Position numbers and translations under genes: made by a program | From: Candidatus Liptonbacteria bacterium RIFCSPLOWO2_01_FULL_56_20 | GTDB taxonomy: Bacteria > Patescibacteriota > Minisyncoccia > UBA6257 > 2-01-FULL-56-20 | Reading direction: 5' to 3' | DNA: 54,420 bases | Assembly: GCA_001818655.1 (NCBI GenBank) | Contig: MHLC01000026.1 | Coordinates: 1 to 54,420 of the forward strand | Part shown: positions 4,106 through 50,867 of the stretch, piece by piece | Position numbering within the stretch: the stretch's first letter is position 1 | Layout: each line of letters opens with the position of its first letter | The notes under the pieces: model-generated | What the model was told of the DNA's origin: nothing | The model's database searches: none | Seen by the model: the letters and a program-made list of their open reading frames with translations, nothing else

Positions 4106-4418
4106 GGGGATGATCAGCTTCGATAAAGACAGGTCACGGACTGGCGAGCCGAGCGCTGACTCGTAAAACCGGCACCACGCATAACTGCTAACCAAAAAGT
4201 TGCAGCTCCCGCATTCGCTTACGCGTAACGCGGGGATCGCCTGACCCCTTGTCTCTTGGGGTCAGACACGGTCTTATACAAGGGGACTAAGTTCCGCCGG
4301 ATGATCCTGCGGCGGGATCGAAAACCAAGGATCAATTCGCCTGACTTCGGTTAGACTACGCTCGTAGAAGGTTCGCTGATACTGTTTTTAGACGGCGGCT
4401 CACTACCGCCCATCTCCA
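4106..4418 (+). ncRNA. ssrA: tmRNA (SsrA), about 313 nt, CCA not encoded
   Basis: The 5' end GGGGATGATCAGCTTCGATAAAGACAGG resembles the tmRNA tRNA-like 5' end. The 3' end is AGAC-GGCGG-CTCACTA-CCGCC-CATCTCC-A. The acceptor GGGGATG/CATCTCC carries the G3:U70 alanine identity pair. The P2 helix is AAAGACAG/CTGTTTTT. Tag ORF at 4187-4225 is GCT AAC CAA AAA GTT GCA GCT CCC GCA TTC GCT TAC GCG, with TAA at 4226-4228, giving ANQKVAAPAFAYA. Confidence 0.8.
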
Positions 4419-4604
4419 CTCGACTCGATTCATTACATTCCGCTCGCTCGCGGCGAGCCGCTTAGAAAATCTTTCCCGCCGCAAGGCGGGATTTAGATCG
4501 TGAAGCGCTCCGATCGCGGTATCGGAACTGCATTCTCTTGGGCCTCGCGAAGGACGCGGGCGAGCGATCAAAGGGCCCGCGCGATATGGTAGAATGATCT
4601 TATA

Positions 4605-5318
4605 ATGCTCAACGCCGGGTTTGTATTCCCTGTTGCGGCGCTTGCGTTGGGGATCCTCACGAGCGCCTATTTCTTGATCGAATGGTGGCGCGCCCACCGG
4701 CGCCCCCGATTCCTTTTGCTGTGGGCAGTAGCGCTTTTCCTTATGTATTGGTTCCAGGTGCCGACCATTTTAACGGGCCCGGGGAAGGTCATTACGGTCA
4801 CGGACTTCAACTTGTTCTTTGCCCTCACGCTTCCCATAACATTCGTGGCTCTGGTGCTGGTCTATATCGGCTCTTTGGAGGTTGTGGGATCGCGTTTGAA
4901 GGGAAGGACGAGGACGTGGTTTCTCTGCTGGTTCTTATTCGCGGTGATATTTTTCGCGTACCACTTTATCATGAGAAAAGGAGTCATTGAGACGCACACT
5001 CTCCCGTTTGTCGGGAATGTCGCGTTCTATCTGCCGATCCGCATGCTCATCCTCTTTATATTCGTGAGGTGGCTCTCCGGCCCCACACCCAAGGGCGCAT
5101 ACGGAGTTCTCGGCGCCGCAGCGGTGATAGGGGAAGGGGTCATCGGGATCTTCCGCAACTTCCTCGTCTTGAAGACGATCCTCGTCTATCCGCCGCAATT
5201 CTGGTACGTCGCCCTCACGTCTTCAAAAGCATTTTTTCTTTTGCAAACCTTAAGCATTATTCTGCTCGCGCTAGGATTTTACCTGCTCTATCGTATGCAT
5301 CAGCGGTTGAGGAGTTGA
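4605..5318 (+). CDS. multi-pass integral membrane protein, unknown function
   Basis: 237-aa ORF with about 7 hydrophobic segments. No family recognised. Confidence 0.6.
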   Translation: MLNAGFVFPVAALALGILTSAYFLIEWWRAHRRPRFLLLWAVALFLMYWFQVPTILTGPGKVITVTDFNLFFALTLPITFVALVLVYIGSLEVVGSRLKGRTRTWFLCWFLFAVIFFAYHFIMRKGVIETHTLPFVGNVAFYLPIRMLILFIFVRWLSGPTPKGAYGVLGAAAVIGEGVIGIFRNFLVLKTILVYPPQFWYVALTSSKAFFLLQTLSIILLALGFYLLYRMHQRLRS

Positions 5319-5393
5319 CGCGGATCCATCCTCGTTTCCCGACTAAACCAGACTTTACTGGACAGGCGCGGGGCGCCGGGTATTATTTTTCTT

Positions 5394-6098
5394 ATGAGCA
5401 TCGGGTCGGAAATCCATCCTGTTCAGGCGGCAATCCTGCGCGTCCTCCACTACACGCCCGAGGCGCGCTTTTCAGAGCTGAACACCGGGAACATTTCAAG
5501 CGACCACTTCACGTTCCACGTGAAAAAACTTTTAGAGCTCGGCCTCATTGAGAAGTCCGGAGAGCGGTACCGGCTCACTCCGGCGGGCAAAGAATTCACG
5601 AACCGCTTCGACACCGACACGGAGAAGATCGTGCTCGAGCGGCAGGCAAAGATCGGCGCGCTCGTGATCTGCACGCGCGAAGAGAACGGGCAGGCCCAAT
5701 ATCTTGCCCAGCAGCGTCTGAAACAGCCGTTTTACGGCTTCCACGGCTTTATCACCGGCAAAGTGAAGTGGGGCGAGCAGGTATTGGAGACCGCGGCGCG
5801 GGAACTGCGCGAAGAAGCCGGCCTTGCGGCCAAACTCACGCTCGTGGGCGTTGAGCACAAAATGGACTATTCGCCGGCGGGCGACCTCCTTGAAGACAAA
5901 TACTTTTTCCTTTTCCGCGGCGAAGAGCCCGAAGGGACGCTCACGGAGAAATTCGAAGGCGGACGCAATTTTTGGACGTCAAAAGAAGAGATCCTCAAAC
6001 TCCCCGACCTGTTTGACGACGTATCCGCAATGCTCGAGGCGGTCGGGCAGGACAAATTCGTGTTCCACGAGCGGAAGTATACGGTGGCGAAATATTGA
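5394..6098 (+). CDS. winged-helix (N-terminal) plus NUDIX hydrolase (C-terminal) fusion protein
   Basis: The N-terminus (HPVQAAILRVLHY...FTFHVKKLLELGLIEKSGERYRLTPAG) looks like a wHTH. An intact Nudix box is present: GKVKWGEQVLETAARELREEAGL (GX5EX7REUXEEXGU). Confidence 0.8.
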   Translation: MSIGSEIHPVQAAILRVLHYTPEARFSELNTGNISSDHFTFHVKKLLELGLIEKSGERYRLTPAGKEFTNRFDTDTEKIVLERQAKIGALVICTREENGQAQYLAQQRLKQPFYGFHGFITGKVKWGEQVLETAARELREEAGLAAKLTLVGVEHKMDYSPAGDLLEDKYFFLFRGEEPEGTLTEKFEGGRNFWTSKEEILKLPDLFDDVSAMLEAVGQDKFVFHERKYTVAKY

Positions 6099-6105
6099 AC
6101 GCGGG

Positions 6106-6540
6106 TCAGGGAAGTTCTGGCCGGCTTCCTCGCTTGAGCATCACAAGCGAGAGAATAAAAATGGCAAGATAAAACACGAGTCCGTACACGCAGGTCGGGA
6201 AAACAAGCCCGTAATCCGGATTTCCCGAAGAAAGCCATAGAACAAGCTCGCGCCACACGAACTGCCCGGCGAACAAGATGCCGGCGGCAGAGATCCAGGC
6301 GATCCATTGCGCGGACGCCCGGCTGGCCAAGCCCCGGTAGCGCGCGGCAAGCACGAGGAAAAACATCGCGAGGAACATTACGAAGCCGTACCAGCACGCG
6401 GGGTAGCCCAAAAAGTAGGGGCAGGATTCATTGAACGCGCACGTGCCGGTCGCGAGCTTGACCGCGCTCAAATAGCCGGAGAAGAGCACGCCTGCAAGCG
6501 TGAGCCAGAACGTAATGCGGAGATACCTAGCAGGGCTCAT
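6106..6540 (-). CDS. VKOR-like small membrane protein with a loop cysteine pair
   Basis: Internal ATG at 6540-6538 gives 144 aa. LTLAGVLFSGYLSAVKLATGTCAFNESCPYFLGYPACWYG resembles VKOR TM1 plus the C-x5-C loop. No clear CXXC in later TMs. The 240-aa version overlaps dsbB and was rejected. Confidence 0.45.
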   Translation of the reverse strand: MSPARYLRITFWLTLAGVLFSGYLSAVKLATGTCAFNESCPYFLGYPACWYGFVMFLAMFFLVLAARYRGLASRASAQWIAWISAAGILFAGQFVWRELVLWLSSGNPDYGLVFPTCVYGLVFYLAIFILSLVMLKRGSRPELP

Positions 6541-6571
6541 TACGATATAAGTATAGCGCGAGGTAGAACGT

Positions 6572-7129
6572 TCAGCCCGCGGGCTTCCTCGCCGCCGCTC
6601 CCGCGAGCAGGAAAACGATGATAAGGAGGAATGCCGTAAGCGACATCGTGGGAATGGCGACATAGCCGTATTCCATGAAGAATTGCTGGGTGCATGATGC
6701 GACGCCTGCGGGGCAGACCGTGGATTCCGATCCGGCAAAAAAAATATATGAGTGGTACGCGGCGACAAGGCTGCCCGCTGCGGAAAGAACAAGGGCATAT
6801 ATTCTCGCAGCTGCTTCTTTCCGCACAAGCGCGAGCCCCAAGATGATTACTTGCGGGTAAAGGAATATTCTCTGCCACCAGCACAAGACGCACGGCGGGA
6901 AGCCCGCGACTTCAGAATAGAACAAACTGCTTATGACGCCGGCAAGCGCGACAAGGAACGAGAAAAGGAGCGCCCGTTTTCCGAAAAAGCCGAGCGCGGA
7001 TTCAAATACGCCATGGGCAAAGCCCATTTTCCGCGCGAGAAGCGCGAGCGAGAGAAAGACGAAGAGCGCCCCTCCCAAGACCGTGAGGAGCGACAAAAGA
7101 TCGGTTACGCTCTGGACAAGCGGCGTCAT
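6572..7129 (-). CDS. dsbB: disulfide bond formation protein, DsbB/BdbC family
   Basis: 185-aa 4-TM protein with the BdbC-type motif PPCVLCWWQRIFLYP and a second Cys pair (CPAGVASC). Confidence 0.8.
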   Translation of the reverse strand: MTPLVQSVTDLLSLLTVLGGALFVFLSLALLARKMGFAHGVFESALGFFGKRALLFSFLVALAGVISSLFYSEVAGFPPCVLCWWQRIFLYPQVIILGLALVRKEAAARIYALVLSAAGSLVAAYHSYIFFAGSESTVCPAGVASCTQQFFMEYGYVAIPTMSLTAFLLIIVFLLAGAAARKPAG

Positions 7130-7515
7130 TGCGGTTCTGGCAGGACGCAGCCGGACTTATCCGCGAGCGTGCGGAGAGGCACCTCGCCGGAGAGACGGCT
7201 TCCATCCGCAAACACCCACGTGGGGTACCCTTTTATTCCGTTTTGTGCGCAGACCGGAAGCTGGCCCTGGCCGTCCGGCGTGGAGCATTCTATGTACGGG
7301 AGCTCGCCCGCCGCGCTGCCGAACAGTTTTTTCTGCGCCTGGCAGTACAGACACCAGAACGTTCCATAAAAGAGCGCGCCCTTGTCTTTGAGGCACGCGG
7401 CGAACGGCCCAAGATTCGTGGGGCCGCTCTGGAAATTCGGGTAAATAAGGAGGCCGAGGCCGACCAATACCAATACGAGGACGATCGAGAACGTTGCAGT
7501 GTGCTTGTTCTTCAT
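7126..7515 (-). CDS. membrane-anchored thioredoxin-fold protein (CxxC)
   Basis: N-terminal TM. FYGTFWCLYCQAQKKLFG...YIEC....C...GIKGYPTWVF.DG matches the thioredoxin-like domain found fused to bacterial VKOR proteins. It overlaps dsbB by 4 nt. Confidence 0.75.
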   Translation of the reverse strand: MKNKHTATFSIVLVLVLVGLGLLIYPNFQSGPTNLGPFAACLKDKGALFYGTFWCLYCQAQKKLFGSAAGELPYIECSTPDGQGQLPVCAQNGIKGYPTWVFADGSRLSGEVPLRTLADKSGCVLPEPQ

Positions 7516-7611
7516 GTGAACAAAAAATCCCTATCGGCCATGCGGCCTATCATAGCAAAAATAATTCTGCGTAGCCAGCAGGAAGATTTGCACAGCGCAT
7601 AGCCGGCCCGG

Positions 7612-8442
7612 CTATTGGAGGTTCCTTACAAAACTGATCGGATCTACGGACACGCCGTTGATCTTTATCGATAAGTGGAGATGTGGCGTCTCGGCGTAGC
7701 CCGTATTTCCCACGGTGCCGACGAGAGAGCCCTTCTTCAACGCGGCGCCTTCCTTGACCCTGATCGTGTCGAGGTGGATATAGAAAGAGAATATGCCTTG
7801 TCCGTGGTCCACGATGACCAAGTTGCCGTAGACCGCATCAACATATGCTTTACGAACCAAGCCCGCGTTTATCGCGCCCACAGCCGCGCCTTTTTTCGCG
7901 GTGAAATCCGTTCCCATGTGGCGTATCTGGGTCTCGCCGGTTTGCCGTATCTCGCCGAACACGCTTCCCACGCGCCGGTTGTCCGCGAGCGCGAGTCCGA
8001 ACTGGCTTGAGAAGAAAACATTCTCAGCTTTTTTCCCGAATATCTCATCCAGGATCACTTTTTCCGTTTGGAGCTTGTTCACCAAACCGGTAGGCGTGAG
8101 CCCAAGTTTTTCCGGAATACCCAGCACTACAAGCGGGAATTTTTTGGCGCGCACCGCGACAGTTTGCTCTTGCACGGTGCCGTCCGCGAAGTCCACGCGC
8201 AGCACATAGGCACCAGGCGGTTTTGTCGCGGAGACGCCGAACACCGCGCGGTACGCGCCCGCGTACGGGAAAACAGAGATCGCCGCGCCGTCGAACGTCG
8301 CAGATCGCGGGTTTTTAGAAAAAGAAACGACCACGGCGTCGCCCTGAAACAGCGTCTTGGGAGAGAGCGCGAGCGGCGTCTCTGCTCGCGCAGCGATAGG
8401 CAAGAGTATGACGATAAAACAGGAAAGGATTATTCTGTTCAT
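7612..8442 (-). CDS. M23 family (LytM-like) metallopeptidase, secreted
   Basis: Signal or anchor sequence, then HMGTDF (HxxxD) and PHLHLSIKINGVSVDP (HxH) motifs. Confidence 0.85.
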   Translation of the reverse strand: MNRIILSCFIVILLPIAARAETPLALSPKTLFQGDAVVVSFSKNPRSATFDGAAISVFPYAGAYRAVFGVSATKPPGAYVLRVDFADGTVQEQTVAVRAKKFPLVVLGIPEKLGLTPTGLVNKLQTEKVILDEIFGKKAENVFFSSQFGLALADNRRVGSVFGEIRQTGETQIRHMGTDFTAKKGAAVGAINAGLVRKAYVDAVYGNLVIVDHGQGIFSFYIHLDTIRVKEGAALKKGSLVGTVGNTGYAETPHLHLSIKINGVSVDPISFVRNLQ

Positions 8443-8933
8443 GATTTTTCCCGCGCGGTTCGCATCTCGCGCTCGGCCGCGCGTTTCTTGAGGACCGCGC
8501 GCTTGTCGGATTTTTTCCTGGACTTACCAAGCCCGAGCTCGATCTTTACGAAGCCGCGTTTTATATACGCGCGAAGCGGCACAAATGTTAGCCCTTTTTC
8601 GCGGACGCGGCCGGTTATGCCCTTTATTTCCTCGTGCCGGAGAAGAAGGCGGCGCGTGCGGCCGGAGTCATAATCCTTCGGCGCGTTCTTGGGCTGATAC
8701 GCAGGGATCTGCGCGTTCAAAAGCCAGACCTCGTTGTTTCGTACGACCGCGTAGCTGCCGCTCAAATTGATATGGCCGGCTTTCGCGCTTTTCACTTCTT
8801 GGCCGGTGAGCTCGATGCCGGCTTCGTAGGTTTCAATGATGTCGTAGTCGAATCGCGCCCGCCTGTTCTCGGCGAGGCAGGCCCGCCTGTTCTCGGCGAG
8901 GAATGCGCGGCGGTTTCGGACGGGTGCGTTCAT
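8439..8933 (-). CDS. smpB: SsrA-binding protein SmpB
   Basis: ENRRARFDYDIIETYEAGIELTGQEVKS...SYAVV...EVWLLN..I.PY matches the SmpB core. The N-terminus carries an in-frame 24-nt tandem duplication. Confidence 0.9.
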   Translation of the reverse strand: MNAPVRNRRAFLAENRRACLAENRRARFDYDIIETYEAGIELTGQEVKSAKAGHINLSGSYAVVRNNEVWLLNAQIPAYQPKNAPKDYDSGRTRRLLLRHEEIKGITGRVREKGLTFVPLRAYIKRGFVKIELGLGKSRKKSDKRAVLKKRAAEREMRTAREKS

Positions 8934-9014
8934 GCTTTTATTCTAACCCAGAAATTTCATTGTCAGAAGCCGTTTTTTGCGGTATTTTTAGCTTGTATTG
9001 CCGCTCAAAATCGC

Positions 9015-10613
9015 ATGCTTCAGACAAGGATAAGAATTATTGTGAGGAATGCTGTTCCCGCGAACATTGAATTCGACGTGCTCGTGCCGGAGAAAAGCGC
9101 GTTCGGCCACTATGCGACCAACGTTGCGTTGCGAATGGCGAAGCACGAGCGTAAGGATCCGATCAAGCTCGGCCATGAGCTCGCGACAAAAATCCGCGAG
9201 CGTGCGCCGCAGGGGTTTTTTGCGAGGGTCGAGGTTGCGCCGCCCGGATTCATCAATTTTTGGCTTTCGCCGCACGCGTTTGCCTTGGTCGTGGGCGAGA
9301 TCGTGAAGCAGAAATCCCGCTACGGGTCGTCCCGGCTGGGGAAAGGAAAAAAAACGCAGGTGGAATACGTTTCCGCGAACCCGACCGGCCCCCTCACGCT
9401 CGCGAACGGCAGGGGCGGGTTTTTGGGAGACGCGATCGCGAACGCGCTCAAGTTTGCGGGCTACACGGTCGAGCGCGAATACTACGTGAACGACACGGGC
9501 GGCCAGATAGAAACGTTAGGCAGGTCAATCCTGGCGTTTGCGGGCTATGTCCCCGAAGAAGACCATTTCTATAAAGGCGCATACCTCAAGGATTGGGAGA
9601 AGAAGCATCGCGCCGTAGCAAAGCGTTACGCGAAAGACCCGCTGCGGTTAGGCCAGCGCGCCGCGCGTGATTTCTTGGGCGCGATCAAGTCCGTGCTCGC
9701 CAAGGAAGCGCGCATCCGCTTTGACCGGTTTACTTCGGAAGAGGGGCACATCCACAAGAAAGGGTTCGTCAAAAAAGCGCTCGCGCTTTTTGAGCGGAAA
9801 AAACTGGCGTACGAGAAAGAAGGCGCGGTGTGGCTCCGGACCACCGCATTCGGAGACGATAAGGATCGTGTGCTCGTAACGCGCGAAGGGAGTCCGACAT
9901 ACCTCCTTGCGGACTCCGGGCACTACTTAGAGACCAAAACGCGCGGTTTCCACGGAAAGATCAATATTCTGGGGCCGGATCATTACGGGTACGTGAAGCG
10001 CATTCAGGCCGCAGCAGCGATCGTAGGTCTTGATAACTCCGAAGTGATTATCACGCAGGCCGTGCGGCTCGTGCGAAACGGGAAAGAGGCGAAGATGTCC
10101 AAGCGCAAAGGCGAGTTCGCGACGTTTAAAGAGCTTATCCGCGATGTCGGCTCTGATGCCGCGCGATTCTTTTTCCTCATGATCGCGCCCGAGACGCATA
10201 TGGATTTTGACCTCGCGCTCGCCAAAGAGCACTCCATGAAAAATCCGGTCTATTACGCGCAGTACGCGGCAGTGCGCGCCCGCGCGATCCTGAAAAAACT
10301 AGGGAAGCAGCCGGTCCTATCAAATGAGAAGCTCGCCGCGCTCCTTGTAACCGAGGACGACGCTCGCCTTATGGCGATGCTTGCGCGATTTCCCGAAGTG
10401 CTGGAGGAAGCGACGCGCACCCGGCGCATCCATGAGCTCACGCGCTATGCGTCAGACCTCGCCGCCACGTTCCATAATTTCTACGAGAAAGAGCGGGTGA
10501 TCGAAGAAGAAAAAGACGTGCGCGCCGCGCGCGGCACGCTTGTTTCTGCCGCTTCCATCGTATTTACGAACCTCTTCGGCATTTTGGGCATTGCAACGCC
10601 GAAGAAAATGTAG
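9015..10613 (+). CDS. argS: arginine--tRNA ligase
   Basis: Internal ATG at 9015 (MLQTRIRIIVRNAV...). SANPTGPLTLANGRG (HIGH-region equivalent), KMSKRKG, and a C-terminal DALR-type anticodon-binding region. The 659-aa ORF start is antisense to smpB and was rejected. Confidence 0.9.
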   Translation: MLQTRIRIIVRNAVPANIEFDVLVPEKSAFGHYATNVALRMAKHERKDPIKLGHELATKIRERAPQGFFARVEVAPPGFINFWLSPHAFALVVGEIVKQKSRYGSSRLGKGKKTQVEYVSANPTGPLTLANGRGGFLGDAIANALKFAGYTVEREYYVNDTGGQIETLGRSILAFAGYVPEEDHFYKGAYLKDWEKKHRAVAKRYAKDPLRLGQRAARDFLGAIKSVLAKEARIRFDRFTSEEGHIHKKGFVKKALALFERKKLAYEKEGAVWLRTTAFGDDKDRVLVTREGSPTYLLADSGHYLETKTRGFHGKINILGPDHYGYVKRIQAAAAIVGLDNSEVIITQAVRLVRNGKEAKMSKRKGEFATFKELIRDVGSDAARFFFLMIAPETHMDFDLALAKEHSMKNPVYYAQYAAVRARAILKKLGKQPVLSNEKLAALLVTEDDARLMAMLARFPEVLEEATRTRRIHELTRYASDLAATFHNFYEKERVIEEEKDVRAARGTLVSAASIVFTNLFGILGIATPKKM

Positions 10614-10845: not shown

Positions 10846-11436
10846 ATGGAAAAGATGAGCGTAGGACAGGCTCGGGAGCTACACAGCCGCTTGGTGCGGT
10901 GCGCCCCCGACGACTTGGACACCGATCTCGCGCAGGCATTGAACGACGCCTCGCCCGAGATCATCCGCGAGTTCCTCGCTGGGCTGAAGACCCTTCAGGT
11001 CTTTTGCTCTGTCCCCGAGGACGGCGAGGAGTTCGAGCTCTCGCTCGACGGCAACGCCGTAGACCCGCTGGCGATGGTCCGTAAGGACGGCTACAGCGGG
11101 GAGTGGCAGTTTAACGGGCCGAAAGTGGAGGGAGTTCAGACCCGCCGCTTCCAGCTCGTCCGTTTGGGATACTGCCCTAACCTCGACGAGGCCAAGGCGA
11201 AAGCCCAAACCCGGGGTTACCGGCTCGCCGAGGGTGAGTGGCGGGAGGCTTTCCGCAAGAGGTTTCTTCGCCCCGCCGTTGGCGACCTTATCGCCTTCGG
11301 TGGTTCCGGGTGGACGTACCCGAATGGCGACCGCAACTTCCCGTATCTCGACGAGAGCGACGGAGCGTGGGACTCGGACTTCGACTGGGTTGGCAGCGGG
11401 TTCGACGAGGACTGGCGGTGGCTCGTGAGCAAGTAG
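10846..11436 (+). CDS. DGR target (variable) protein, 196 aa, C-terminal CLec/DUF1566-like variable region
   Basis: AAGGAG SD upstream. The C-terminal 44 aa (GSGWTYPNGDRNFPYLDESDGAWDSDFDWVGSGFDEDWRWLVSK) are encoded by the VR. No signal peptide or TM is visible. Confidence 0.85.
   Translation: MEKMSVGQARELHSRLVRCAPDDLDTDLAQALNDASPEIIREFLAGLKTLQVFCSVPEDGEEFELSLDGNAVDPLAMVRKDGYSGEWQFNGPKVEGVQTRRFQLVRLGYCPNLDEAKAKAQTRGYRLAEGEWREAFRKRFLRPAVGDLIAFGGSGWTYPNGDRNFPYLDESDGAWDSDFDWVGSGFDEDWRWLVSK
11302..11433 (+). repeat. DGR variable region (VR)
   Basis: Aligns at an offset of 529 nt with 11831-11962. In a hand alignment, 13 mismatches were found, 11 of them at positions that are A in the downstream copy. 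Confidence 0.85.
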
Positions 11437-11488
11437 CGGGACTTGGAGCCTCGGGCGCTTGGCGTTCCATTGGCCCCTCGGTTCCTTC

Positions 11489-11520
11489 GGCCTCGCACGG
11501 TCAATATGACGTGCGAGGCC
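11489..11520 (+). terminator. GC-rich hairpin downstream of VR (terminator and/or DGR target-recognition stem-loop)
   Basis: GGCCTCGCAC-ggtcaatatgac-GTGCGAGGCC, a 10-bp perfect stem followed by TTTCGTTTT. Confidence 0.5.
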
Positions 11521-11549
11521 TTTCGTTTTACAGGTAAGAGGCGACAGCC

Positions 11550-11578
11550 TTGTGTTTCAATACTAGTGGCGATAGAAT
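11550..11578 (+). promoter_or_regulatory. candidate promoter for the TR RNA
   Basis: TTGTGT (11550-11555), 17 nt, TAGAAT (11573-11578), about 250 nt upstream of the TR. Confidence 0.35.
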
Positions 11579-11830
11579 AATTTACGGAGAGTAGATTAAT
11601 AGAAGCCCGCGGCTACGGTTTCGGGCGATCAAAATCCGAGATTTGTCGTATGCGGAGTAGCATCGGGTACGCCTTGTGCTAGCGTCATCCTCAATCTCCA
11701 AAAAACAAAAGCTACTTGGTACCAGGCGCCAGCGAGTTTTTAGACTCCAAATACGATACAATCCGGAGACCGGCCCGCCAACATAGTGCGGCACTCAACG
11801 GACGGTGGCGCAGATGGCGTCTGGTATATT

Positions 11831-11962
11831 GGTTCCGAGTGGACGAACCCGAATGGCAACCGCAACTTCCCGTATCTCGACGAGAACGACGGAGCGTGGA
11901 ACTCGAACTTCAACTGGGCTGACAACGATTTCGACGAGAACTGGCGGTGGCTCGTGAGCAAC
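11831..11962 (+). repeat. DGR template region (TR)
   Basis: The adenine-rich copy of the VR, with AAC codons at most variable positions (GAAC, GCAAC, GAGAAC, TGGAACTCGAACTTCAAC, GACAACGAT, GAGAAC). Not a plausible CDS in its own right. Confidence 0.85.
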
Positions 11963-12366
11963 TACTTTTGTTCCCCGCCTCTGGCGGGGTTTATTATTGT
12001 ATTGACCTGTTTCTGCCAGCCGCCGAGCATTCTGCCAATTTCAGAGAGGTTTTCTGATAGGGCTATATATTTTTTATTGTCCAAAGCCTTGATCTCCCAG
12101 GCGATTTGCAGAAAGAATTTCAAGGAGTCCAGCTTGGCACTGGCCTCAAAAATGACCGGCAATTTTCTCTCCCCGGGTAAGCGACTCGCTGTAAAAACAA
12201 GTTCAATCATTTCCGTGAACAGGCCGTCAATTTTCCCGCCCAGCGTGTAGCGCGAGGTCTTGGGAAAATGCGGCAGGAATTCGTGCCATAGTTTGTAGGC
12301 GGCAATCAGGCGCTGGATGATGGATAAATTGTTCCTGCGGGGGGGGCTTACTGGTAAAGAATTCAT
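11962..12366 (-). CDS. avd: DGR accessory variability determinant (Avd; four-helix-bundle protein)
   Basis: MNSLPV...SIIQRLIAAYKLWHEFLPHFPKTSRYTLGGKIDGLFTEMIELVFTA...LDSLKFFLQIAWEIKAL...LSEIGRMLGGWQKQ shows a typical Avd / 23S-IVS four-helix-bundle pattern. Start chosen at the internal ATG at 12366-12364. Confidence 0.85.
   Translation of the reverse strand: MNSLPVSPPRRNNLSIIQRLIAAYKLWHEFLPHFPKTSRYTLGGKIDGLFTEMIELVFTASRLPGERKLPVIFEASAKLDSLKFFLQIAWEIKALDNKKYIALSENLSEIGRMLGGWQKQVNTIINPARGGEQK
11973..11999 (+). terminator. terminator-like hairpin immediately 3' of TR (inside the avd C-terminal codons on the other strand)
   Basis: CCCCGCC-tct-GGCGGGG (11973-11989) followed by TTTATTATTG. Confidence 0.4.
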
Positions 12367-13342
12367 GAAAAAATTTGATTGCAACTTTGAGCGGATGGTA
12401 AGCGTGGAAAATCTACTGGACGCTTGGCAGGAATTCGTCCGCGGCAAGCGGGCGAAGCCGGACGTGCAGGAATTCTCTCTGCGGCTTATGGATAACATTT
12501 TACAGCTCCATCATGAACTTGTGAACCGAACCTACCGGCACGGCGGCTACCAGTCGTTCAACATCTCCGACCCGAAGCCGCGAAACATCCATAAAGCAAA
12601 CGTCCGCGACCGACTCCTGCACCACGCCGTCCATCGCATACTCTACCCCCTCTTTGACCGGACATTTATCGCCGATTCCTATTCCTGCCGTTTAAGCAAA
12701 GGCACACACAAAGCCATTAACCGCTTTAGGGCGTTCGCCTACAAGGCGAGCCGCAACCACACCAGGACCTGCTGGGTTTTGCAATGCGATGTCAAAAAGT
12801 TTTTCGCCAGCGTTGATCACAGGGTCTCGCTGGATATCCTCAAACGCTACATATCGGATACTGACATTATCCGGCTCTTGCGAGAAGTTGTCGGCAGTTT
12901 TCACTCCGGCATTCCGGGCAAGGGTTTGCCGCTCGGCAATCTCACTTCCCAGCTTCTGGCCAATGTATATATGAATGAGCTTGATCAGTTCGTGAAGCAC
13001 AAACTCAAAATAAGGCATTACATCCGCTATGCGGACGATTTTACGATTTTATCCGAGAACAAAACCTTACTGGAGAGTTTAACCCCGCAGATAGACGGTT
13101 TCCTCCGTCAAAACCTTAAACTGGAATTGCATCCGGACAAGATTTGCATGAAAACCATCGCTTCCGGCGTGGATTTCCTGGGCTGGGTGCATTTCCTCGG
13201 CCACCGAGTTTTGCGGACGGCAACGAGGAGGCGGATGCTGAAACAGATTGCGGAACATCCTGCGCCGGAGACACTGATTTCGTACGCTGGCCTTCTGCGG
13301 CACGGGAATGCGTACAAGCTCCTCGCGTCTTTAGGATTTTAG
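12365..13342 (+). CDS. DGR reverse transcriptase
   Basis: VENLLDAW, DPKPRNIHKANVRDRLLHHAV, CDVKKFFASVDH, LPLGNLTSQLLANVYMNELD (the DGR-specific LGxxxSQ motif), YIRYADDFTIL (YxDD), GVDFLGW. Start ATG at 12365 (alternatives 12317 or 12395). Confidence 0.9.
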   Translation: MKKFDCNFERMVSVENLLDAWQEFVRGKRAKPDVQEFSLRLMDNILQLHHELVNRTYRHGGYQSFNISDPKPRNIHKANVRDRLLHHAVHRILYPLFDRTFIADSYSCRLSKGTHKAINRFRAFAYKASRNHTRTCWVLQCDVKKFFASVDHRVSLDILKRYISDTDIIRLLREVVGSFHSGIPGKGLPLGNLTSQLLANVYMNELDQFVKHKLKIRHYIRYADDFTILSENKTLLESLTPQIDGFLRQNLKLELHPDKICMKTIASGVDFLGWVHFLGHRVLRTATRRRMLKQIAEHPAPETLISYAGLLRHGNAYKLLASLGF

Positions 13343-13401
13343 TTTGCGGCTACGAAGATTCTCCGCTATTATTCAGTCATTACGAAGAGGATAATCCAAT
13401 A

Positions 13402-16400
13402 ATGTTTTTTGGAGAAAATTTCAAACTGCCCGAAGTAGAGGAAAAGGTCTTGAAGTTCTGGAAAACAAACCGGATCTTCGAGAAAAGCCTGGCGCAGACC
13501 AGAAACGGAAAACCCTTCACCTTCTATGACGGGCCGCCTTTTGCGACCGGCCTGCCGCACTATGGCCATATCCTCGCCTCGACCATCAAGGATGTGATAC
13601 CGCGCTATCAGACGATGAGGGGGCGGTTCGTCCGTCGCCGCTGGGGCTGGGATTGTCACGGCCTGCCCGTCGAGGAGATCGTGGAGCGGAAGCTTGGCAT
13701 CTCCGGCAAGAAGCAGATCGAGAAAATTGGCATTCGGAGATTCAACGAAACGTGCCGGAACACGGTGCTTGAGTTCGTGAACGAGTGGAAAAAGACGGTC
13801 GAGCGGATCGCCCGCTGGGTGGAGTTTGATAACGCATACAAGACGATGGATCCCGACTATATGGAATCGGTCTGGTGGGCGTTCAAAGAGATGCATGAGA
13901 AGAACCTGATCTACGAGGGACGGAAAGTGCTTATGTATTGCTCGCGGTGCGAGACGCCGGTTTCGAACTTCGAGGTGGCGATGGACAACTCCTACAAGGA
14001 CGTGACAGAGGAGGCGGTAACCGTAAAGTTCAAGGTGAGGCCGGGTCAAGGCGTCGGCCGCTCGAAGCTTCCCAAAGATACATATCTTCTGGCTTGGACA
14101 ACGACGCCGTGGACTCTGCCGGGGAACGTTGCGTTGGCAGTAGGGGAAAAAATCAGCTACACCGCGCTTCGTACGCGGGGATCGAAGGAGTTATATGTCG
14201 TGGCGAGCGCAGCCGTGCCGAAACTTTTTGCGAAACAGGAGATAGAGGTCGTGCACCAGGACATCGCTGGGAAAGACCTGGTGGGCTTGGCCTACGAGCC
14301 GCTCTTTGACGTACCAGCGGTGCGGTCGGCGAAGGCGTTCAGGATTTATTCCGCCGATTTTGTTGCGATGGACGAAGGAACGGGCATCGTGCACACAGCC
14401 GTGGTCTATGGCGAAGAGGACTATGTACTAGGACAGAGGGAGGGCCTCCCGGTCGTGCCGCTCCTTGACGAAAAGGGAAAGTTTAATGATAGGGCGCCGA
14501 AGTTCCTGTGCAACACATACTTTAAGGACGCGGACCCATTGATCGTTGCCAATCTCGAGAGGCGCAAGCTTCTCTTCCGTAAGGAAAAACAGACGCATTC
14601 CTATCCGCACTGCTGGCGGTGCGGTACGCCGCTCTTCTACAACGCCATTCCCGCCTGGTTTGTGAATATTCAGAAAATGAAAAAGCAGCTCATTGCCTCG
14701 AACGCGAGAGAGATGCACTGGTACCCCGCGCACTTAAAGCATGGCCGTTATGAGAACAGCGTGAGAGAGGCGCCAGATTGGAATATTTCCCGCAACCGGT
14801 ATTGGGGGAATCCGATTCCGGCGTGGAAGTGTGAGCGGTGCGGTCGGACAGAGGTCATCGGGAGCTTGGACGAGCTTTCGGAACGCACCGGTGGGGCAAA
14901 AAACCATTACTGGGTCCTCCGGCACGGATTTGCGGAGTCCAACCTCGCGCGCACCATTGATTCCGGTCAGAGGCAATTCCACCTTACCCCTACGGGAATT
15001 ATGGAGGTAGAGACGGGCATCGCTAAGTTTAAGAAGGAACTTGCCCGTCACGGAGAAAAGATTGACCTTATCGTTTCCTCAGACATCCTCCGTGCTAAGG
15101 AGAGCGAGGCGGTTGCGGCGAAGGCGCTCGGCGTCAAAAAAATCAGTTTTGACAAGCGGCTGGAGGAAATTCGTTTGGGGAAGGGACTTTCGGGGTGCCA
15201 TGACGCGCAGTACCACAAACAATATCCGACCTATGAATCAAAGTTCGAAGAGCGCCCTAAGGGAGGCGAATCCCTAAGAGATCTTCGTGCGCGGGCATGG
15301 GGGCTTCTTGGGGGGCTTGAGGAGAGGCATCGCGGCAAGAACATATTGCTCGTGAGCCATGAGTATCCGATCTGGATGCTCTTTCATACAGGCGAGGGAT
15401 GGAGCGAAGAGCGGGCGATCACGGAAAAGAAAGGGCGGGGGGCGGATTTTATTGAAACCGGGGAGGTGCGTGAGTTGCGTTTCAGGGCCGTGCCACGCAG
15501 CGAAACCGGCGAGGTGGATCTCCACCGGCCTTATATCGATGAGATTACTCTGCGATGCAGGAAATGCGGCGGGAAAGCAAAGCGAATCGCAGAGATTTTT
15601 GATTCGTGGACCGAAGCCGGTTCGATGCCCTTCGCGGAGTACCACTACCCTTTCGAGAATAAAAAGACGTTCGAGAATAGATTCCCCGCACAATTCGTGG
15701 CCGAGTACATCGCGCAGACCCGGGCGTGGTTCTATGTGATGCATGTGGTTGGCCTCGCCCTCTTCAAAAGGGCGCCTTTCGAGCACGTGGTCACGACTGG
15801 TACCATTCTTGCGGAGGACGGCTCGAAGATGTCGAAGTCAAAAGAAAATTACCCTGACCCGTGGAACGTCATCGGAAAGTACGGCGTGGATGCACTCCGT
15901 TTCTATCTGATGAGTTCAGTCGTGATGCAGGCCGACAATTTGAACTTCAACGTACGGGATCTCGAAACGGCGTACCGTAGAGTTATCGTCACTCTGTGGA
16001 ACGTGTACAACTATTTTGCCATCTATGCGGGGGCGGCGGAGCGGAGCCGCGCCGGCCGCGTGAAGAAAACAGTCTTGGATAAGTGGATTGACGGCCGCAG
16101 AGAAGAATTAGTTCGGGCGGTAACGAGCCACATGGAGTCTTATGATACCGTGCGCGCCACGAGAGCGATCGCGGAGTATATTGACGATCTTTCGCGATGG
16201 TATCTGCGGCGCAGCCGAAAGCGAACCGACGCGGCGTTTTTTATCACGCTCCGTGATGCTCTTTTCACCGCAAGTCGAGTGATTGCTCCATTCATGCCAT
16301 ATCTTGCCGAGGTGCTCTATGGGAATATTGTGGGGCATACCACAGGAAGCAAGCATCCTGTGTCGGTGCATCTCGTTTCTTGGCCGCGGGCGGACAAGCG

Positions 16401-16920
16401 ACTGATTAACAAGAGATTGTTCAGTAAAATGGTTGAGGTGCGGCGGCTTGCAAGCGTTGCGCTCGCAAAACGCGCAGAGGCCGGTATTAAAGTGCGTCAG
16501 CCGCTGTCCGTGCTCAAGATCAAAACTCAAAAGACGGGAGTGAAGCTGGATAAGGAACTGCTCGGGATTTTAAAAGAAGAAGTGAACGTGAAAGAGGTCG
16601 TGTTTGATAAAAAACTCAAAGTGGAGGTTGAACTTGACACGAACATCACGCCGGAGCTGCGTGAAGAAGGGTTGCTCCGCGAGCTCGTCCGTATGGTCCA
16701 GGACCTGCGTCAGAAAGCTGGGCTAAGGCCCAGGGACAAGATCGTGCTCCTTGCGGAATTGCCTAAGGAAATGAGAGCCGCGGCAGTAAAACAAGAGGGT
16801 GCGCTCAAACGCGAAGTGAACGCGAGAGAGGTTCAATATAAGAAGTCGGATAAGTTCATCGCAGAGGCGCAGACAAAAACCGACGAAGGAGAGGCGTGGC
16901 TCGGGGTAAGAAAGAGTTAG
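13402..16920 (+). CDS. ileS: isoleucine--tRNA ligase (type 2) with an inserted histidine-phosphatase-like domain
   Basis: Start ATG at 13402 (MFFGENFKLPEVEEKVLKFW). PPFATGLPHYGHIL (HIGH), WTTTPWTLPGN (editing domain), KMSKSKEN. 1172 aa, about 100-130 aa longer than I recall for type-2 IleRS. The extra segment at 14899-15516 carries RHG...SH motifs. Confidence 0.9.
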   Translation: MFFGENFKLPEVEEKVLKFWKTNRIFEKSLAQTRNGKPFTFYDGPPFATGLPHYGHILASTIKDVIPRYQTMRGRFVRRRWGWDCHGLPVEEIVERKLGISGKKQIEKIGIRRFNETCRNTVLEFVNEWKKTVERIARWVEFDNAYKTMDPDYMESVWWAFKEMHEKNLIYEGRKVLMYCSRCETPVSNFEVAMDNSYKDVTEEAVTVKFKVRPGQGVGRSKLPKDTYLLAWTTTPWTLPGNVALAVGEKISYTALRTRGSKELYVVASAAVPKLFAKQEIEVVHQDIAGKDLVGLAYEPLFDVPAVRSAKAFRIYSADFVAMDEGTGIVHTAVVYGEEDYVLGQREGLPVVPLLDEKGKFNDRAPKFLCNTYFKDADPLIVANLERRKLLFRKEKQTHSYPHCWRCGTPLFYNAIPAWFVNIQKMKKQLIASNAREMHWYPAHLKHGRYENSVREAPDWNISRNRYWGNPIPAWKCERCGRTEVIGSLDELSERTGGAKNHYWVLRHGFAESNLARTIDSGQRQFHLTPTGIMEVETGIAKFKKELARHGEKIDLIVSSDILRAKESEAVAAKALGVKKISFDKRLEEIRLGKGLSGCHDAQYHKQYPTYESKFEERPKGGESLRDLRARAWGLLGGLEERHRGKNILLVSHEYPIWMLFHTGEGWSEERAITEKKGRGADFIETGEVRELRFRAVPRSETGEVDLHRPYIDEITLRCRKCGGKAKRIAEIFDSWTEAGSMPFAEYHYPFENKKTFENRFPAQFVAEYIAQTRAWFYVMHVVGLALFKRAPFEHVVTTGTILAEDGSKMSKSKENYPDPWNVIGKYGVDALRFYLMSSVVMQADNLNFNVRDLETAYRRVIVTLWNVYNYFAIYAGAAERSRAGRVKKTVLDKWIDGRREELVRAVTSHMESYDTVRATRAIAEYIDDLSRWYLRRSRKRTDAAFFITLRDALFTASRVIAPFMPYLAEVLYGNIVGHTTGSKHPVSVHLVSWPRADKRLINKRLFSKMVEVRRLASVALAKRAEAGIKVRQPLSVLKIKTQKTGVKLDKELLGILKEEVNVKEVVFDKKLKVEVELDTNITPELREEGLLRELVRMVQDLRQKAGLRPRDKIVLLAELPKEMRAAAVKQEGALKREVNAREVQYKKSDKFIAEAQTKTDEGEAWLGVRKS

Positions 16921-17977: not shown

Positions 17978-18352
17978 TTAGAATCGAAAATCATTTTGTC
18001 TAACCGAGATACACCACTGCGGAGAGAATTTTAGATTCTTTAATGTCTGATTTTTGTCAAAGATGGCGAGCCTGGGTTTTTCGTTGACATTACATACAAT
18101 GTAAAGAAAAAAATTGTCTTCGCGTTGCAGAGCTTTAAAATTGTACTCGTTGAAGTTCGCGAATCCAGGGTAGTTTGCTCTGAATCCTTTTACTTCTATT
18201 TTACGCCCTCGCGATTCTACGTCGTATCCAAGGTGCTGTGAGGCAACGTTTCTTGCGGGTCCTCGACGATGCTGTTTTTCAAAAGATGCCACAAATTCTA
18301 TTGCACGTTGTTCAATCAATCTATTATTAGTTCTTTTGCCGTCGCTTTCCAT
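17978..18352 (-). CDS. small PD-(D/E)xK nuclease-like protein (DUF3883-like)
   Basis: GYDVESRGRKIEVKGF......FNEYNFKALQREDNFFLYIV matches the D...E-x-K core and the DUF3883 pattern. The gene sits in a conspicuously AT-rich islet. Confidence 0.6.
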   Translation of the reverse strand: MESDGKRTNNRLIEQRAIEFVASFEKQHRRGPARNVASQHLGYDVESRGRKIEVKGFRANYPGFANFNEYNFKALQREDNFFLYIVCNVNEKPRLAIFDKNQTLKNLKFSPQWCISVRQNDFRF

Positions 18353-20279: not shown

Positions 20280-20366
20280 TGGTGCCCTCCAGAGGATTTG
20301 AACCTCTACGGGATTACTCCCACAAGCTCCTGAAGCTTGCGCGTCTGCCAGTTCCGCCAGGAGGGC
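20280..20366 (-). tRNA. tRNA-Leu (anticodon CAG), CCA encoded
   Basis: The reverse complement folds as GCCCTCC / D-arm / CAAGC-TTCAGGA-GCTTG / long variable arm TGGGAGTAATCCCGT / AGAGG-TTCAAAT-CCTCT / GGAGGGC-A-CCA. 87 nt. Confidence 0.85.
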
Positions 20367-45371: not shown

Positions 45372-46315
45372 TCTCTATTCTCTGTGCGGTTCGCAATGAC
45401 GGCCGGTTCATCCGTGAGACCATGGAGACCGTAGTCGCGCAGTCCTATCCTCACTGGGAGCTGATCGTTATGGACGGCGCTTCCACGGATGAGACCCCGG
45501 AGATAGTGAAAGAATATGCGGCTCGGCATAAGAACATAATTTTCCGTTCCGAGCCCGACGAAGGTCAGTGGCACGCCCTGGATAAGGCGCTGTCTTTGGC
45601 AAGAGGTGAGTATATACTCCTGCTCTGCGGCCAGGACGGCTATTTGCATAGAGATTGGTTTAAGCATTGCGTGCAAGCGCTTAAGAGCCACCCGGCAGTA
45701 TCTCTCGTATGGGGCATCCCGTTTAATATGAGCGAGGACGGCAAGCTCTTGGGGCCGCACTATGCCTACGCGAGTTTCTTAAAAGATGAGCAATATAATT
45801 CGGGGACGAAGCCGGTAAGCACGCTTATAGCAAAGATCGACTGGCGCCGTGCGTCGGCGCTCAAACGCTTAGGGCATCTCTTTGGTAAATTGACTTGGCC
45901 GCGGCTCAGGGTTTTACTTAGTTCGTTTAGGAAGCAGGAAATACCGCAAAAAGAGGATTGGTTTTTTTACTGGCTGCGCACCGGGCGGGTTTTCCCGGAA
46001 AGCAACATGTGTGTCCGCAAAAACGTGTACGCCAAGCTTACCACCAGATTTCCCGAAGAGAAGATGACGAACGCCGCGCTTTTGGATTTTTGTTTTGACT
46101 TCAACGCCAAGGGCTTCCTCGCTTACGGCCTGCCGCTTGCGGGGAGTTTTGGCCGTTCCCATGCAGCGGGGCAAGCGCTGCGCGAGTATGATGATGTGCT
46201 CACCGCGGGTTACTACAGAAAAGTAGCGGACTTTAAGGAGAAAACGAAGGGGCAGAAGGTGCGCTTTATAGACGCATTGGGCAAGGTCGTTTCCGAGCGC
46301 GTGATACCGGCATGA
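45350..46315 (+). CDS. family 2 glycosyltransferase
   Basis: ISILCAVRNDGRFIRETMETVVAQSYPHWELIVMDGASTDETPEI. Confidence 0.75.
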   Translation: MATKKSLISILCAVRNDGRFIRETMETVVAQSYPHWELIVMDGASTDETPEIVKEYAARHKNIIFRSEPDEGQWHALDKALSLARGEYILLLCGQDGYLHRDWFKHCVQALKSHPAVSLVWGIPFNMSEDGKLLGPHYAYASFLKDEQYNSGTKPVSTLIAKIDWRRASALKRLGHLFGKLTWPRLRVLLSSFRKQEIPQKEDWFFYWLRTGRVFPESNMCVRKNVYAKLTTRFPEEKMTNAALLDFCFDFNAKGFLAYGLPLAGSFGRSHAAGQALREYDDVLTAGYYRKVADFKEKTKGQKVRFIDALGKVVSERVIPA

Positions 46316-50059: not shown

Positions 50060-50867
50060 GGTCAGCATCATCCTGCCCGTCTACAATGGCGCGCGTTTTA
50101 TCGCGCGAGCCATTGAGAGCGTGCTCAAGCAGAATTTCGCACAATGGGAGCTGATCGTTGTGGACGACGGGTCGGATGACGAAACGCCGGAGATAGCCGG
50201 TTCTTTTGCGAAGCGGGATGCGAGAGTCCGTTATTTACGGAACCCGGAAAACCTCGGCATTCAACGCACGTTGAACCGCGGCCTTTGCGAGGCGCGCGGC
50301 CGGTATGTCGCGCGGCTTGACGATGACGACGTGTGGCTTGACGGGGGCAAACTCGGGTCGCAGGCGGATTTTCTTGATTCGCATCCCGATCACGTCCTCG
50401 TCGGCACGGGCGCGATCGTGGCCGATGAACAAGGGCGGGAGCTTTTCCGCTTTATGGGGCTCCTGACCGACGAGAAGATCAGGAACACTCTCCTTCGCAA
50501 GAATTGCTTCACTCACTCGACCGTGATGTTCCGGCGGGACGCCGTTTTGGCGGTCGGCGGCTACTCGGAGGATGCGCGTACCCGCCACGTGGAGGACTAC
50601 GATCTGTGGCTTCGGCTGGGCACCCGGGGCCTTCTCGCGAACCTGCCTCTGTTTGCGATCCAGAGCACCCTCCGTTCAGGCAACATAAGCTGGCGCAACA
50701 AACCGGAGCAGTTGAAGAAGGACATTGAACTCGTGAAACGGTATAGAGGGTCGTATCCTCGCTCCCGTTCCGCTCTCGTCTTTGCGTGGGTCCGGTACGC
50801 GCTGTACCGGCTGCTTCCTTTCTTCCCGTTCAGAAAAATCGCGCTCAAGCTGTATAAGACGTATTAA
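50037..50867 (+). CDS. family 2 glycosyltransferase
   Basis: VSIILPVYNGARFIARAIESVLKQNFAQWELIVVDDGSDDETPEI, DDDD.W. Confidence 0.8.
   Translation: MPQRTPCKVSIILPVYNGARFIARAIESVLKQNFAQWELIVVDDGSDDETPEIAGSFAKRDARVRYLRNPENLGIQRTLNRGLCEARGRYVARLDDDDVWLDGGKLGSQADFLDSHPDHVLVGTGAIVADEQGRELFRFMGLLTDEKIRNTLLRKNCFTHSTVMFRRDAVLAVGGYSEDARTRHVEDYDLWLRLGTRGLLANLPLFAIQSTLRSGNISWRNKPEQLKKDIELVKRYRGSYPRSRSALVFAWVRYALYRLLPFFPFRKIALKLYKTY

Follow-up and report, generated by a model that had tools for sequence, protein, structure and literature searches.

The isoleucyl-tRNA synthetase (IleRS) gene ileS on a 54,420-nucleotide contig of Candidatus Liptonbacteria bacterium RIFCSPLOWO2_01_FULL_56_20, a candidate-phyla (Patescibacteria) bacterium (GenBank assembly GCA_001818655.1, contig MHLC01000026.1, positions 1 to 54,420; this whole stretch of DNA is referred to here as the window), encodes a synthetase with a second enzyme domain nested in its catalytic core. 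From its sequence and predicted structure, the insert is a complete, folded branch-1 histidine-phosphatase domain, belonging to the phosphatase side of the superfamily and not to the cofactor-dependent phosphoglycerate mutases (dPGM). The domain forms an inherited part of ileS in much of the Patescibacteria (Paceibacteria/Minisyncoccia and their relatives), and its conserved active site indicates that it is apparently catalytically active. Aminoacyl-tRNA synthetases (aaRS) are among the best-studied enzymes, and their accessory domains, such as those for editing, tRNA binding and signalling, have repeatedly revealed new biology. To our knowledge, a histidine phosphatase is not known from the catalytic core of any synthetase. 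Full-text literature searches, whose coverage leaves out most subscription-journal papers, returned no description of a histidine phosphatase nested in IleRS. There is about an even chance that the insert is an active phosphomonoesterase tied to IleRS, in cis or in trans, with a nucleotide-type phosphomonoester at the synthetic site as the favoured, though speculative, candidate substrate.

The gene lies in a single long, uninterrupted open reading frame (ORF) at 13144-16920 on the + strand. Its start was placed at the ATG at 13402, giving a product of 1172 amino acids (13402-16920), because an identical 1172-residue database protein (P0195) matches it at 100%, end to end. The product scores 815.1 bits against the ileS equivalog model TIGR00392 (cut-off 621.4), and both this match and that of Pfam tRNA-synt_1 are divided by the insert into two flanking stretches. 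Both class-I signatures can be read from the sequence, namely HYGH at residues 53-56 (13558-13569, +) and KMSKS at residues 809-813 (15826-15840, +), with K809 and K812 invariant among 74 species-level sequences. The motifs TTTPWTLPGN and GTGIVHTA mark an editing domain in connective peptide (CP) 1, while the C-terminal region carries DUF5915 (Pfam, E = 6.6e-19), as in type-2 enzymes, rather than the zinc-binding domain of type 1. Comparison with type-2 and eukaryotic IleRS gave approximately 700 bits, against approximately 285 bits for type 1. An AlphaFold2 (AF2) model of the full-length protein, built from a 65-sequence alignment, reached a mean predicted local distance difference test (pLDDT) score of 88.5 and a predicted template-modelling (pTM) score of 0.81, with blocks of the insert at pLDDT 88-96, and its best Foldseek matches in the PDB were the type-2 or eukaryote-type enzymes 8c8v (IleRS2), 8wnd (yeast) and 1ile (Thermus thermophilus). 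On these sequence features the synthetase part is an otherwise normal, editing-competent type-2 IleRS, and its intact motifs imply that it would aminoacylate tRNA-Ile.

Two special forms of IleRS were considered and rejected. The acquired mupirocin-resistance enzymes MupA (NF000257) and MupB (NF000258) gave 677 and 684 bits, respectively, against a cut-off of 1900, and the product is not a member of the ileS_w_GNAT family (NF040702; 288 bits against 1999). Among insert-bearing IleRS, GxHH (mostly GIHH) replaces the HxGH signature in 40 of the 74 species-level sequences, and AIHH does so in two more; the protein of the window has the canonical HYGH. GxHH is the swapped motif reported for mupirocin-hyper-resistant type-2 IleRS. 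Both signatures are found alongside nested and alongside free phosphatases.

The nested domain comprises residues 498-704/705 (207 amino acids; 14893-15516, +). When the protein is aligned with the solved yeast IleRS, residues 6-497 correspond to yeast residues 7-493 and residues 705-1069 to yeast residues 498-884; this leaves four residues at the site, and approximately 207 residues therefore stand in place of a four-residue linker. The initial annotation, made from the sequence alone, had proposed an in-frame insertion of about 205 residues at 14899-15516 where other type-2 IleRS have a short linker. The reading frame is indeed continuous and the borders agree to within 6 nt; the linker is four residues long in yeast and 5-7 residues long in IleRS of the candidate phyla radiation (CPR) that lack the insert. 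The sequence motifs on which that proposal was built all occur where they had been placed: PAWKCERCGR from residue 473, NHYWVLRHG from 501, LLVSHEYP from 649, DLHRPYIDE from 706 (nt 15517) and KMSKS from 809.

The insert is seated in the middle of CP3 (residues 463-733), between the two CxxC pairs of a zinc ribbon. The N-terminal half of CP3 (residues 463-497; 14788-14892, +), located by alignment with yeast IleRS, contains C477 and C480, and the C-terminal half (residues 706-733; 15517-15600, +), located by sequence and the same alignment, contains DLHRPYIDE followed by C719 and C722. All four cysteines are kept in approximately 60 of the 74 orthologues. CP3 has been assigned to residues 459-526 of yeast IleRS and 473-534 of Candida IleRS, and that of T. 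thermophilus carries a zinc-binding motif (PMC7955072, PMC7191050). The segment APDWNISRNRYWG (residues 457-469), immediately N-terminal of CP3, is the equivalent of the yeast 'CP2-3 linker', which helps to form the pocket of reveromycin A, a mimic of the tRNA CCA end (PMC7955072). The G+C content remains at 0.53-0.58 in windows that span the borders of the insert, with no break.

The identity of the insert was established at the level of both sequence and predicted fold. Pfam His_Phos_1 (PF00300) matches residues 504-670 within the whole protein with E = 3.5e-24, and the excised segment with E = 1.4e-25 (90.5 bits against a gathering score of 21.7). It is the sole Pfam match inside the insert, and with respect to an intein or mobile element PADLOC gave no matches there. 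Modelled alone with AF2, the segment gave a pLDDT of 95.8 and a pTM of 0.92, so that a confident model is obtained for the insert on its own; the predicted structure has the alpha/beta fold of the phosphoglycerate mutase type. A Foldseek search with this model returned small branch-1 histidine phosphatases with template-modelling (TM) scores of 0.65-0.70 and 21-25% identity, including a mycobacterial hydrolase (6s2q), the phosphoserine phosphatase PspA (4ij6), a glucosyl-3-phosphoglycerate phosphatase (GpgP; 4qih), a riboflavin-pathway phosphatase (9mmh) and PhoE (1h2e); for PspA, GpgP and PhoE the probability was 1.00. When the sequence of the insert was compared directly with the PDB, only a spurious designed TIM barrel and weak PspA matches were returned. 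The earlier suggestion of a histidine phosphatase with the full set of catalytic motifs is thus borne out by a significant family match with intact motifs.

Assignment to a particular subfamily was also attempted with NCBIfam, and no model of a characterized phosphatase subfamily reached its own cut-off on the insert. The dPGM models NF038349, NF002339 and NF002901 gave 51, 34 and 32 bits against cut-offs of 225, 316 and 261, respectively. In addition, the residues specific to dPGM, ERxYG after the catalytic glutamate and HGN after the histidine, are absent, and the insert reads EIRLG and HEY at these places. Models for CobC (TIGR03162; 42.8 against 162.9 bits), PspA (NF045917; 32 against 350) and SixA (TIGR00249; 17.6 against 74.5) were likewise rejected. 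The best match was PRK07238 (E = 4e-16, model positions 175-335), at 59 bits against a cut-off of 326.

Conservation was examined in 65 database homologues and, separately, in the 74 species-level sequences. N501, R507, H508, S560, R564, E623, R631 and H653 are invariant in both sets. The RHG motif (R507-H508-G509; 14920-14928, +) contains the predicted nucleophile H508; its third position is glycine in 71 of the 74 sequences and alanine in the other three. The second arginine of the phosphate pocket, R564 in an SSDxxR motif (15091-15093, +), and the second catalytic histidine, H653 in VSHE (15358-15360, +), are each found in 74/74 sequences. The predicted proton donor, E589 in RLxEI (15166-15168, +), is glutamate in 69/74 and aspartate in 5/74. 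Mean pairwise identity is 41% for the insert and 67% for the IleRS core, the two divergences being correlated (r = 0.62), while the length of the insert is kept at 196-213 residues throughout the 74 sequences. The zinc-ribbon cysteines beside the insert are lost in 14/74 sequences. Since the catalytic residues remain conserved while the rest of the insert diverges faster than the core and the flanking cysteines are lost in some sequences, selection is acting on catalysis and not just on a spacer.

The insertion is real and widespread. Three independent contigs, from JGI, Logan and ENA assemblies, encode a protein identical to that of the window, and PF00133 and PF00300 are both present in all 120 of the best 120 full-length homologues (52-66% identity). 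The full-length protein was used as the query for this search, as a 297-residue junction query gave fragments only. The GTDB, with one genome per species, was scanned with a four-sequence alignment of the insert (a seven-sequence alignment had no stretch conserved enough to search), and an insert-bearing IleRS was found in at least 302 species. All of the best 80 loci are from Patescibacteria, including Nomura-, Wolfe-, Jorgensen-, Taga-, Campbell-, Zambryski- and Nealsonbacteria (Paceibacteria/Parcubacteria) together with Minisyncoccia. In 80/80 of them the phosphatase lies within one continuous IleRS frame, which is approximately 1130-1260 residues long where the gene is complete in the locus, and the distance from RHG to the downstream HRPYID is 195-200 residues. 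Chimeric assembly, which the initial annotation had wished to see excluded, is excluded because three assemblies hold the same protein and hundreds of species share the insert, and the G+C content is even over the borders.

The same nested architecture, with the same argS...ileS/trpS/RNase J synteny as the window, occurs on a 270-kb long-read contig (L001). On that contig the orthologous insert-bearing ileS (4470-8047) is called as four consecutive fragments of 286, 220, 296 and 399 residues, which most likely reflects indel errors of the long-read assembly and not a truly split gene. NCBI labels insert-bearing proteins as 'class I tRNA ligase family protein', and JGI as isoleucyl-tRNA synthetase. 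The insert seems to degrade automatic naming, although the protein of the window passes the TIGR00392 cut-off, and the feature is easily overlooked because the NCBI name is generic.

Relatives of the insert were sought exhaustively, and without a profile, among 1.84 billion representative proteins (E up to 0.001), which gave 1622 relatives; the top 147 comprise 97 embedded in IleRS and 50 that are not. The closest free-standing relatives are approximately 190 residues long, end at ...GELREL and contain no CP3 remnants; some pipelines annotate such proteins as gpmB or PhoE. In the five informative cases out of five (P0317, P0095, P0106, P0096 and P0107), the gene order is argS-phosphatase-ileS, the neighbouring ileS lacks the insert (938-984 residues), and the phosphatase gene is spaced from the ileS start by only -10 to +18 nt. 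The gene for a sixth free form (P0135) also follows argS, and the gene after it is cut by the end of the contig. The syntenic anchor argS, encoding arginyl-tRNA synthetase, is located in the window at 8634-10613 (+; Pfam Arg_tRNA_synt_N, tRNA-synt_1d and DALR_1). In the neighbouring insert-less IleRS the zinc ribbon of CP3 is still present, and a linker of 5-7 residues occupies precisely the place of the insert. At one locus (L091) the neighbouring IleRS is very different (33% identity), yet the phosphatase gene is still upstream. For P0152, a free homologue that is more distantly related, no ileS lies nearby.

Two further arrangements were found. Rarely, in four clusters, the phosphatase is fused to the C-terminus of TsaC/Sua5, and the genes for these fusions adjoin those for the CCA-adding enzyme, TGT and TruD. 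TsaC/Sua5 proteins of Patescibacteria (P0322-P0434; loci L085-L087) are themselves fused to many domains, most commonly the MGMT DNA-binding domain (PF01035), and also to TruB, 2H/cyclic phosphodiesterase (PF13563/PF07823), Nudix, GNAT and methylpurine glycosylase (MPG) domains. Furthermore, P0174, P0184 and P0185 (loci L094-L097) are stand-alone proteins of 259-289 residues in which the phosphatase lies between both halves of the CP3 zinc ribbon; because both halves are retained, these proteins must derive from the nested form. Such escaped modules lie in unrelated gene neighbourhoods. One is located inside a nonulosonic/sialic-acid-type cluster (Epimerase_2, two NeuB, CTP_transf_3, SDR and HAD), which suggests that this copy was recruited as a sugar-phosphate phosphatase. 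The median isoelectric point (pI) is 9.4 for the free-standing forms and approximately 10 for the TsaC-fused forms, compared with 5.6 for outgroup phosphatases; however, the pI is ambiguous as a sign of nucleic-acid binding because the IleRS core is itself basic (8.7).

In neighbour-joining trees, which are distance-based only, the nested and free phosphatase forms are interleaved. For the IleRS core, a 100-replicate neighbour-joining bootstrap placed three insert-less enzymes within the insert-bearing diversity in 100/100 replicates, at three different places. The free phosphatases are closest to each other and to one nested clade (L036, L050, L069, L070 and L076), and the IleRS-core and phosphatase trees disagree. 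This pattern suggests a small number of nesting and un-nesting events, together with possible replacement or recombination of ileS beside a resident phosphatase gene.

The chemistry of the family predicts how such a domain would work. R507, R564 and H653, with N501, would hold the terminal phosphate of the substrate, and H508 would attack it to form a phospho-histidine intermediate; E589 would then protonate the leaving group, after which water would regenerate the enzyme. The expected reaction is accordingly the hydrolysis of a phosphomonoester via phospho-H508. Its genomic association suggests that this activity may be coupled to IleRS, either from inside CP3 (in cis) or as an operon partner of approximately 190 residues encoded by a gene abutting an insert-less ileS (in trans). 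A nucleotide-type substrate is favoured because CP3 directly follows the CP2-3 linker lining the pocket for the tRNA CCA end, because IleRS and TsaC, the two fusion partners, each form adenylates from ATP within tRNA biology, and because the TsaC fusion sits among genes for tRNA 3'-end processing and modification. A first candidate, which is speculative, would be a 2'- or 3'-phosphorylated A76 end of tRNA-Ile; tRNA with a 2'/3'-phosphorylated 3' end cannot be charged. A second, also conjectural candidate would be a by-product of adenylation, either an adenine nucleotide (AMP) or pyrophosphate. The roles put forward in the initial annotation, namely action on a nucleotide by-product or on tRNA 2'/3' phosphates, or regulation, thus continue to lead among the possible functions. 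In either case the domain would act in clean-up or repair and be kept in a 1:1 ratio to the synthetase. The more specific proposal of synthetase-associated quality control or repair is rather unlikely as it stands: the domain would free the 2'/3' hydroxyls of A76 in tRNA-Ile from a blocking phosphate or pyrophosphate, or the synthetic site from a blocking phosphorylated ligand, where the block could arise from damage or from a toxin that modifies tRNA ends.

Several points weigh against a phosphomonoesterase coupled to IleRS. IleRS is the only synthetase with the domain, although damaged 3' ends and pyrophosphate or AMP are common to all synthetases. The argS-phosphatase-ileS adjacency could be inherited synteny, because the five cases may go back to a common ancestor and overlapping genes are frequent in compact CPR genomes, and the TsaC fusion is weak evidence because TsaC is joined to many unrelated domains. 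As regards a replacement of pyrophosphatase by the domain, which was also considered, at least one Parcubacterium has been reported to possess an H+-pyrophosphatase and an independent phosphoglycerate mutase (PMC5220378). The other points against coupling also speak for a different explanation, in which the domain is a common housekeeping phosphatase for small molecules that has no mechanistic connection with IleRS: a local rearrangement in an ancestral argS-x-ileS string would have dropped the gene into a tolerant surface loop of CP3, where it was kept for other needs of the cell. The nearest solved structures are indeed small-metabolite phosphatases (PspA, GpgP, the riboflavin-pathway phosphatase and PhoE), no residues are conserved outside the generic family core, and P0152 lies away from ileS. 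The escaped CP3-flanked copies in unrelated contexts imply that the module is independent of IleRS, and in the NeuB/CMP-sugar cluster a sugar-phosphate phosphatase would be useful. CPR proteins are, in addition, prone to fusion, as with TsaC. However, the linkage to ileS takes two physically different forms, nested and abutting, and persists over approximately 42-67% IleRS divergence and through what appears to be a replacement of ileS by a type with 33% identity; moreover, hundreds of species have kept at one length an insertion that lies in the catalytic core of an enzyme essential to the cell. An unlinked housekeeping phosphatase is the main rival to coupling but is considered somewhat unlikely.

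A third explanation is that the phosphate pocket serves for binding only, with tRNA-Ile (through its 5'-phosphate or backbone) and a phosphorylated regulator as examples of a ligand, or that the insert is a structural or regulatory lobe. The position of CP3 beside the tRNA CCA pocket and the basic character of the free-standing and TsaC-fused forms are consistent with such a role, but the basic IleRS core leaves the charge signal ambiguous. Furthermore, the nucleophile H508 and the proton donor at position 589 (E or D) are kept in 74/74 sequences, and not just the phosphate-binding arginines, which makes a non-catalytic module very unlikely. It is more improbable still that the insert is the cell's own glycolytic dPGM carried on IleRS: the superfamily is the same and free-standing relatives are sometimes labelled gpmB or PhoE, but the dPGM models, at 30-51 bits, fall far under their cut-offs of 225-316, the ERxYG and HGN residues are absent, and a Parcubacterium has been reported with a cofactor-independent mutase (PMC5220378). 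An artefact, whether chimeric assembly, intein or mobile-element insertion, has a negligible chance in view of the identical protein in three assemblies, the presence of the insert in at least 302 species, the correlated divergence of insert and core, the even composition at the borders and the absence from the insert of any Pfam match besides His_Phos_1 and of any PADLOC match.

The domain has been retained throughout the diversification of a large group of Patescibacteria, and where it is not nested its gene stands beside ileS, which implies that these minimal-genome episymbionts need a phosphate-removing reaction alongside the charging of isoleucine. If the phosphatase is coupled to IleRS, synthetases would gain an accessory activity of a new type, possibly connected with the repair of tRNA ends or with defence against tRNA-targeting toxins, and, should the quality-control or repair proposal be true, a third catalytic activity for an aminoacyl-tRNA synthetase across a major bacterial radiation. 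If it is uncoupled, the locus remains striking as an example of how a domain can be nested in, released from and carried away with a single zinc-ribbon loop, and it calls for caution in metabolic reconstructions that use 'PGAM/gpmB' annotations in these genomes.

The window contains several other features. A diversity-generating retroelement (DGR; 10846-13342, +) lies directly upstream of ileS and is absent at the same position in the syntenic locus L001. Its target ORF (10846-11436, +) ends in a 135-nt variable repeat (11301-11435), to which the template repeat (11830-11964, +) is 90% identical, with 11 of the 14 mismatches at template adenines; the reverse transcriptase gene follows at 12317-13342 (+; RVT_1, E = 9e-24; PADLOC generic reverse transcriptase, E = 2.5e-50). 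A tmRNA gene is located at 4106-4421 (+; Rfam RF00023, 100.5 bits) and was not reported by ARAGORN, whose sole entry for the window is a tRNA-Leu(CAG) at 20280-20366. Between trpS and the RNase J gene, a 124-residue NOV_C protein (E = 2e-9) is encoded at 17978-18352 (-). Finally, an 87-nt direct repeat with 71% identity (45420-45506 and 50110-50196) lies within two ORFs approximately 4.7 kb apart, which may, at a guess, be two paralogous genes with a common conserved motif.

Compared with known systems, both component families are already familiar, as are nested editing hydrolases with free homologues, and the Pfam pair has been recorded automatically by pipelines on public sequences; what is new is that the closest free-standing relatives stand directly upstream of an insert-less ileS, together with the TsaC-fused forms and the escaped CP3-flanked modules. 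The synthetase part has the same domain order as the eukaryote-like, mupirocin-resistant type-2 IleRS structures 8c8v (Priestia megaterium IleRS2), 1ile and 8wnd, with the Rossmann fold, CP core, CP1 editing domain, CP2, CP3, anticodon-binding domain and DUF5915, TM scores of 0.8-0.9 (normalized to target length), HYGH and KMSKS signatures, and a CP3 zinc ribbon similar to that of T. thermophilus. However, halfway through CP3 none of those structures has more than a short linker, at the point where a 207-residue enzyme domain is found here. That domain in turn shares its fold, its size of approximately 200 residues and the R-H...R...E...H set with branch-1 phosphatases such as PhoE/YhfR (1h2e), PspA (4ij5/4ij6), Rv2419c (4qih), 6s2q and HFP (9mmh), whereas these are free-standing, metabolic enzymes with 21-25% identity, none of which is joined or genetically tied to a synthetase.

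Other enzyme fusions offer partial parallels. The ileS_w_GNAT family (NF040702) is likewise an IleRS with an extra enzyme domain, in that case an N-acetyltransferase. The Rv2228c-type RNase H/CobC-like acid phosphatases (PRK07238) also join a histidine phosphatase to a nucleic-acid enzyme, in a role that is unexplained; however, the fusion there is end to end and not nested, the partner is different, and the insert scores 59 against 326 bits. In prolyl-tRNA synthetase (ProRS) INS and YbaK/ProXp, and also in ThrRS-ed and AlaX, an accessory hydrolase is nested in the aaRS core in some lineages and is a separate protein acting in trans in others. The nested and separately encoded forms described here show the same duality, action in trans being proposed here from gene order; the ProRS-type domains hydrolyze aminoacyl esters, whereas the insert would, by family, be a phosphomonoesterase, a chemistry not known to us for any aaRS accessory domain. 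The HD domain of the bacterial CCA-adding enzyme, studied in Escherichia coli, has 2',3'-cyclic phosphodiesterase, 2'-nucleotidase and phosphatase activities and is thought to heal phosphorylated ends. It thus provides a precedent for a phosphohydrolase on a tRNA-related enzyme and for the favoured class of substrate, although the HD fold is metal-dependent and unrelated, the host enzyme is different, and activity of the insert on tRNA ends is a proposal.

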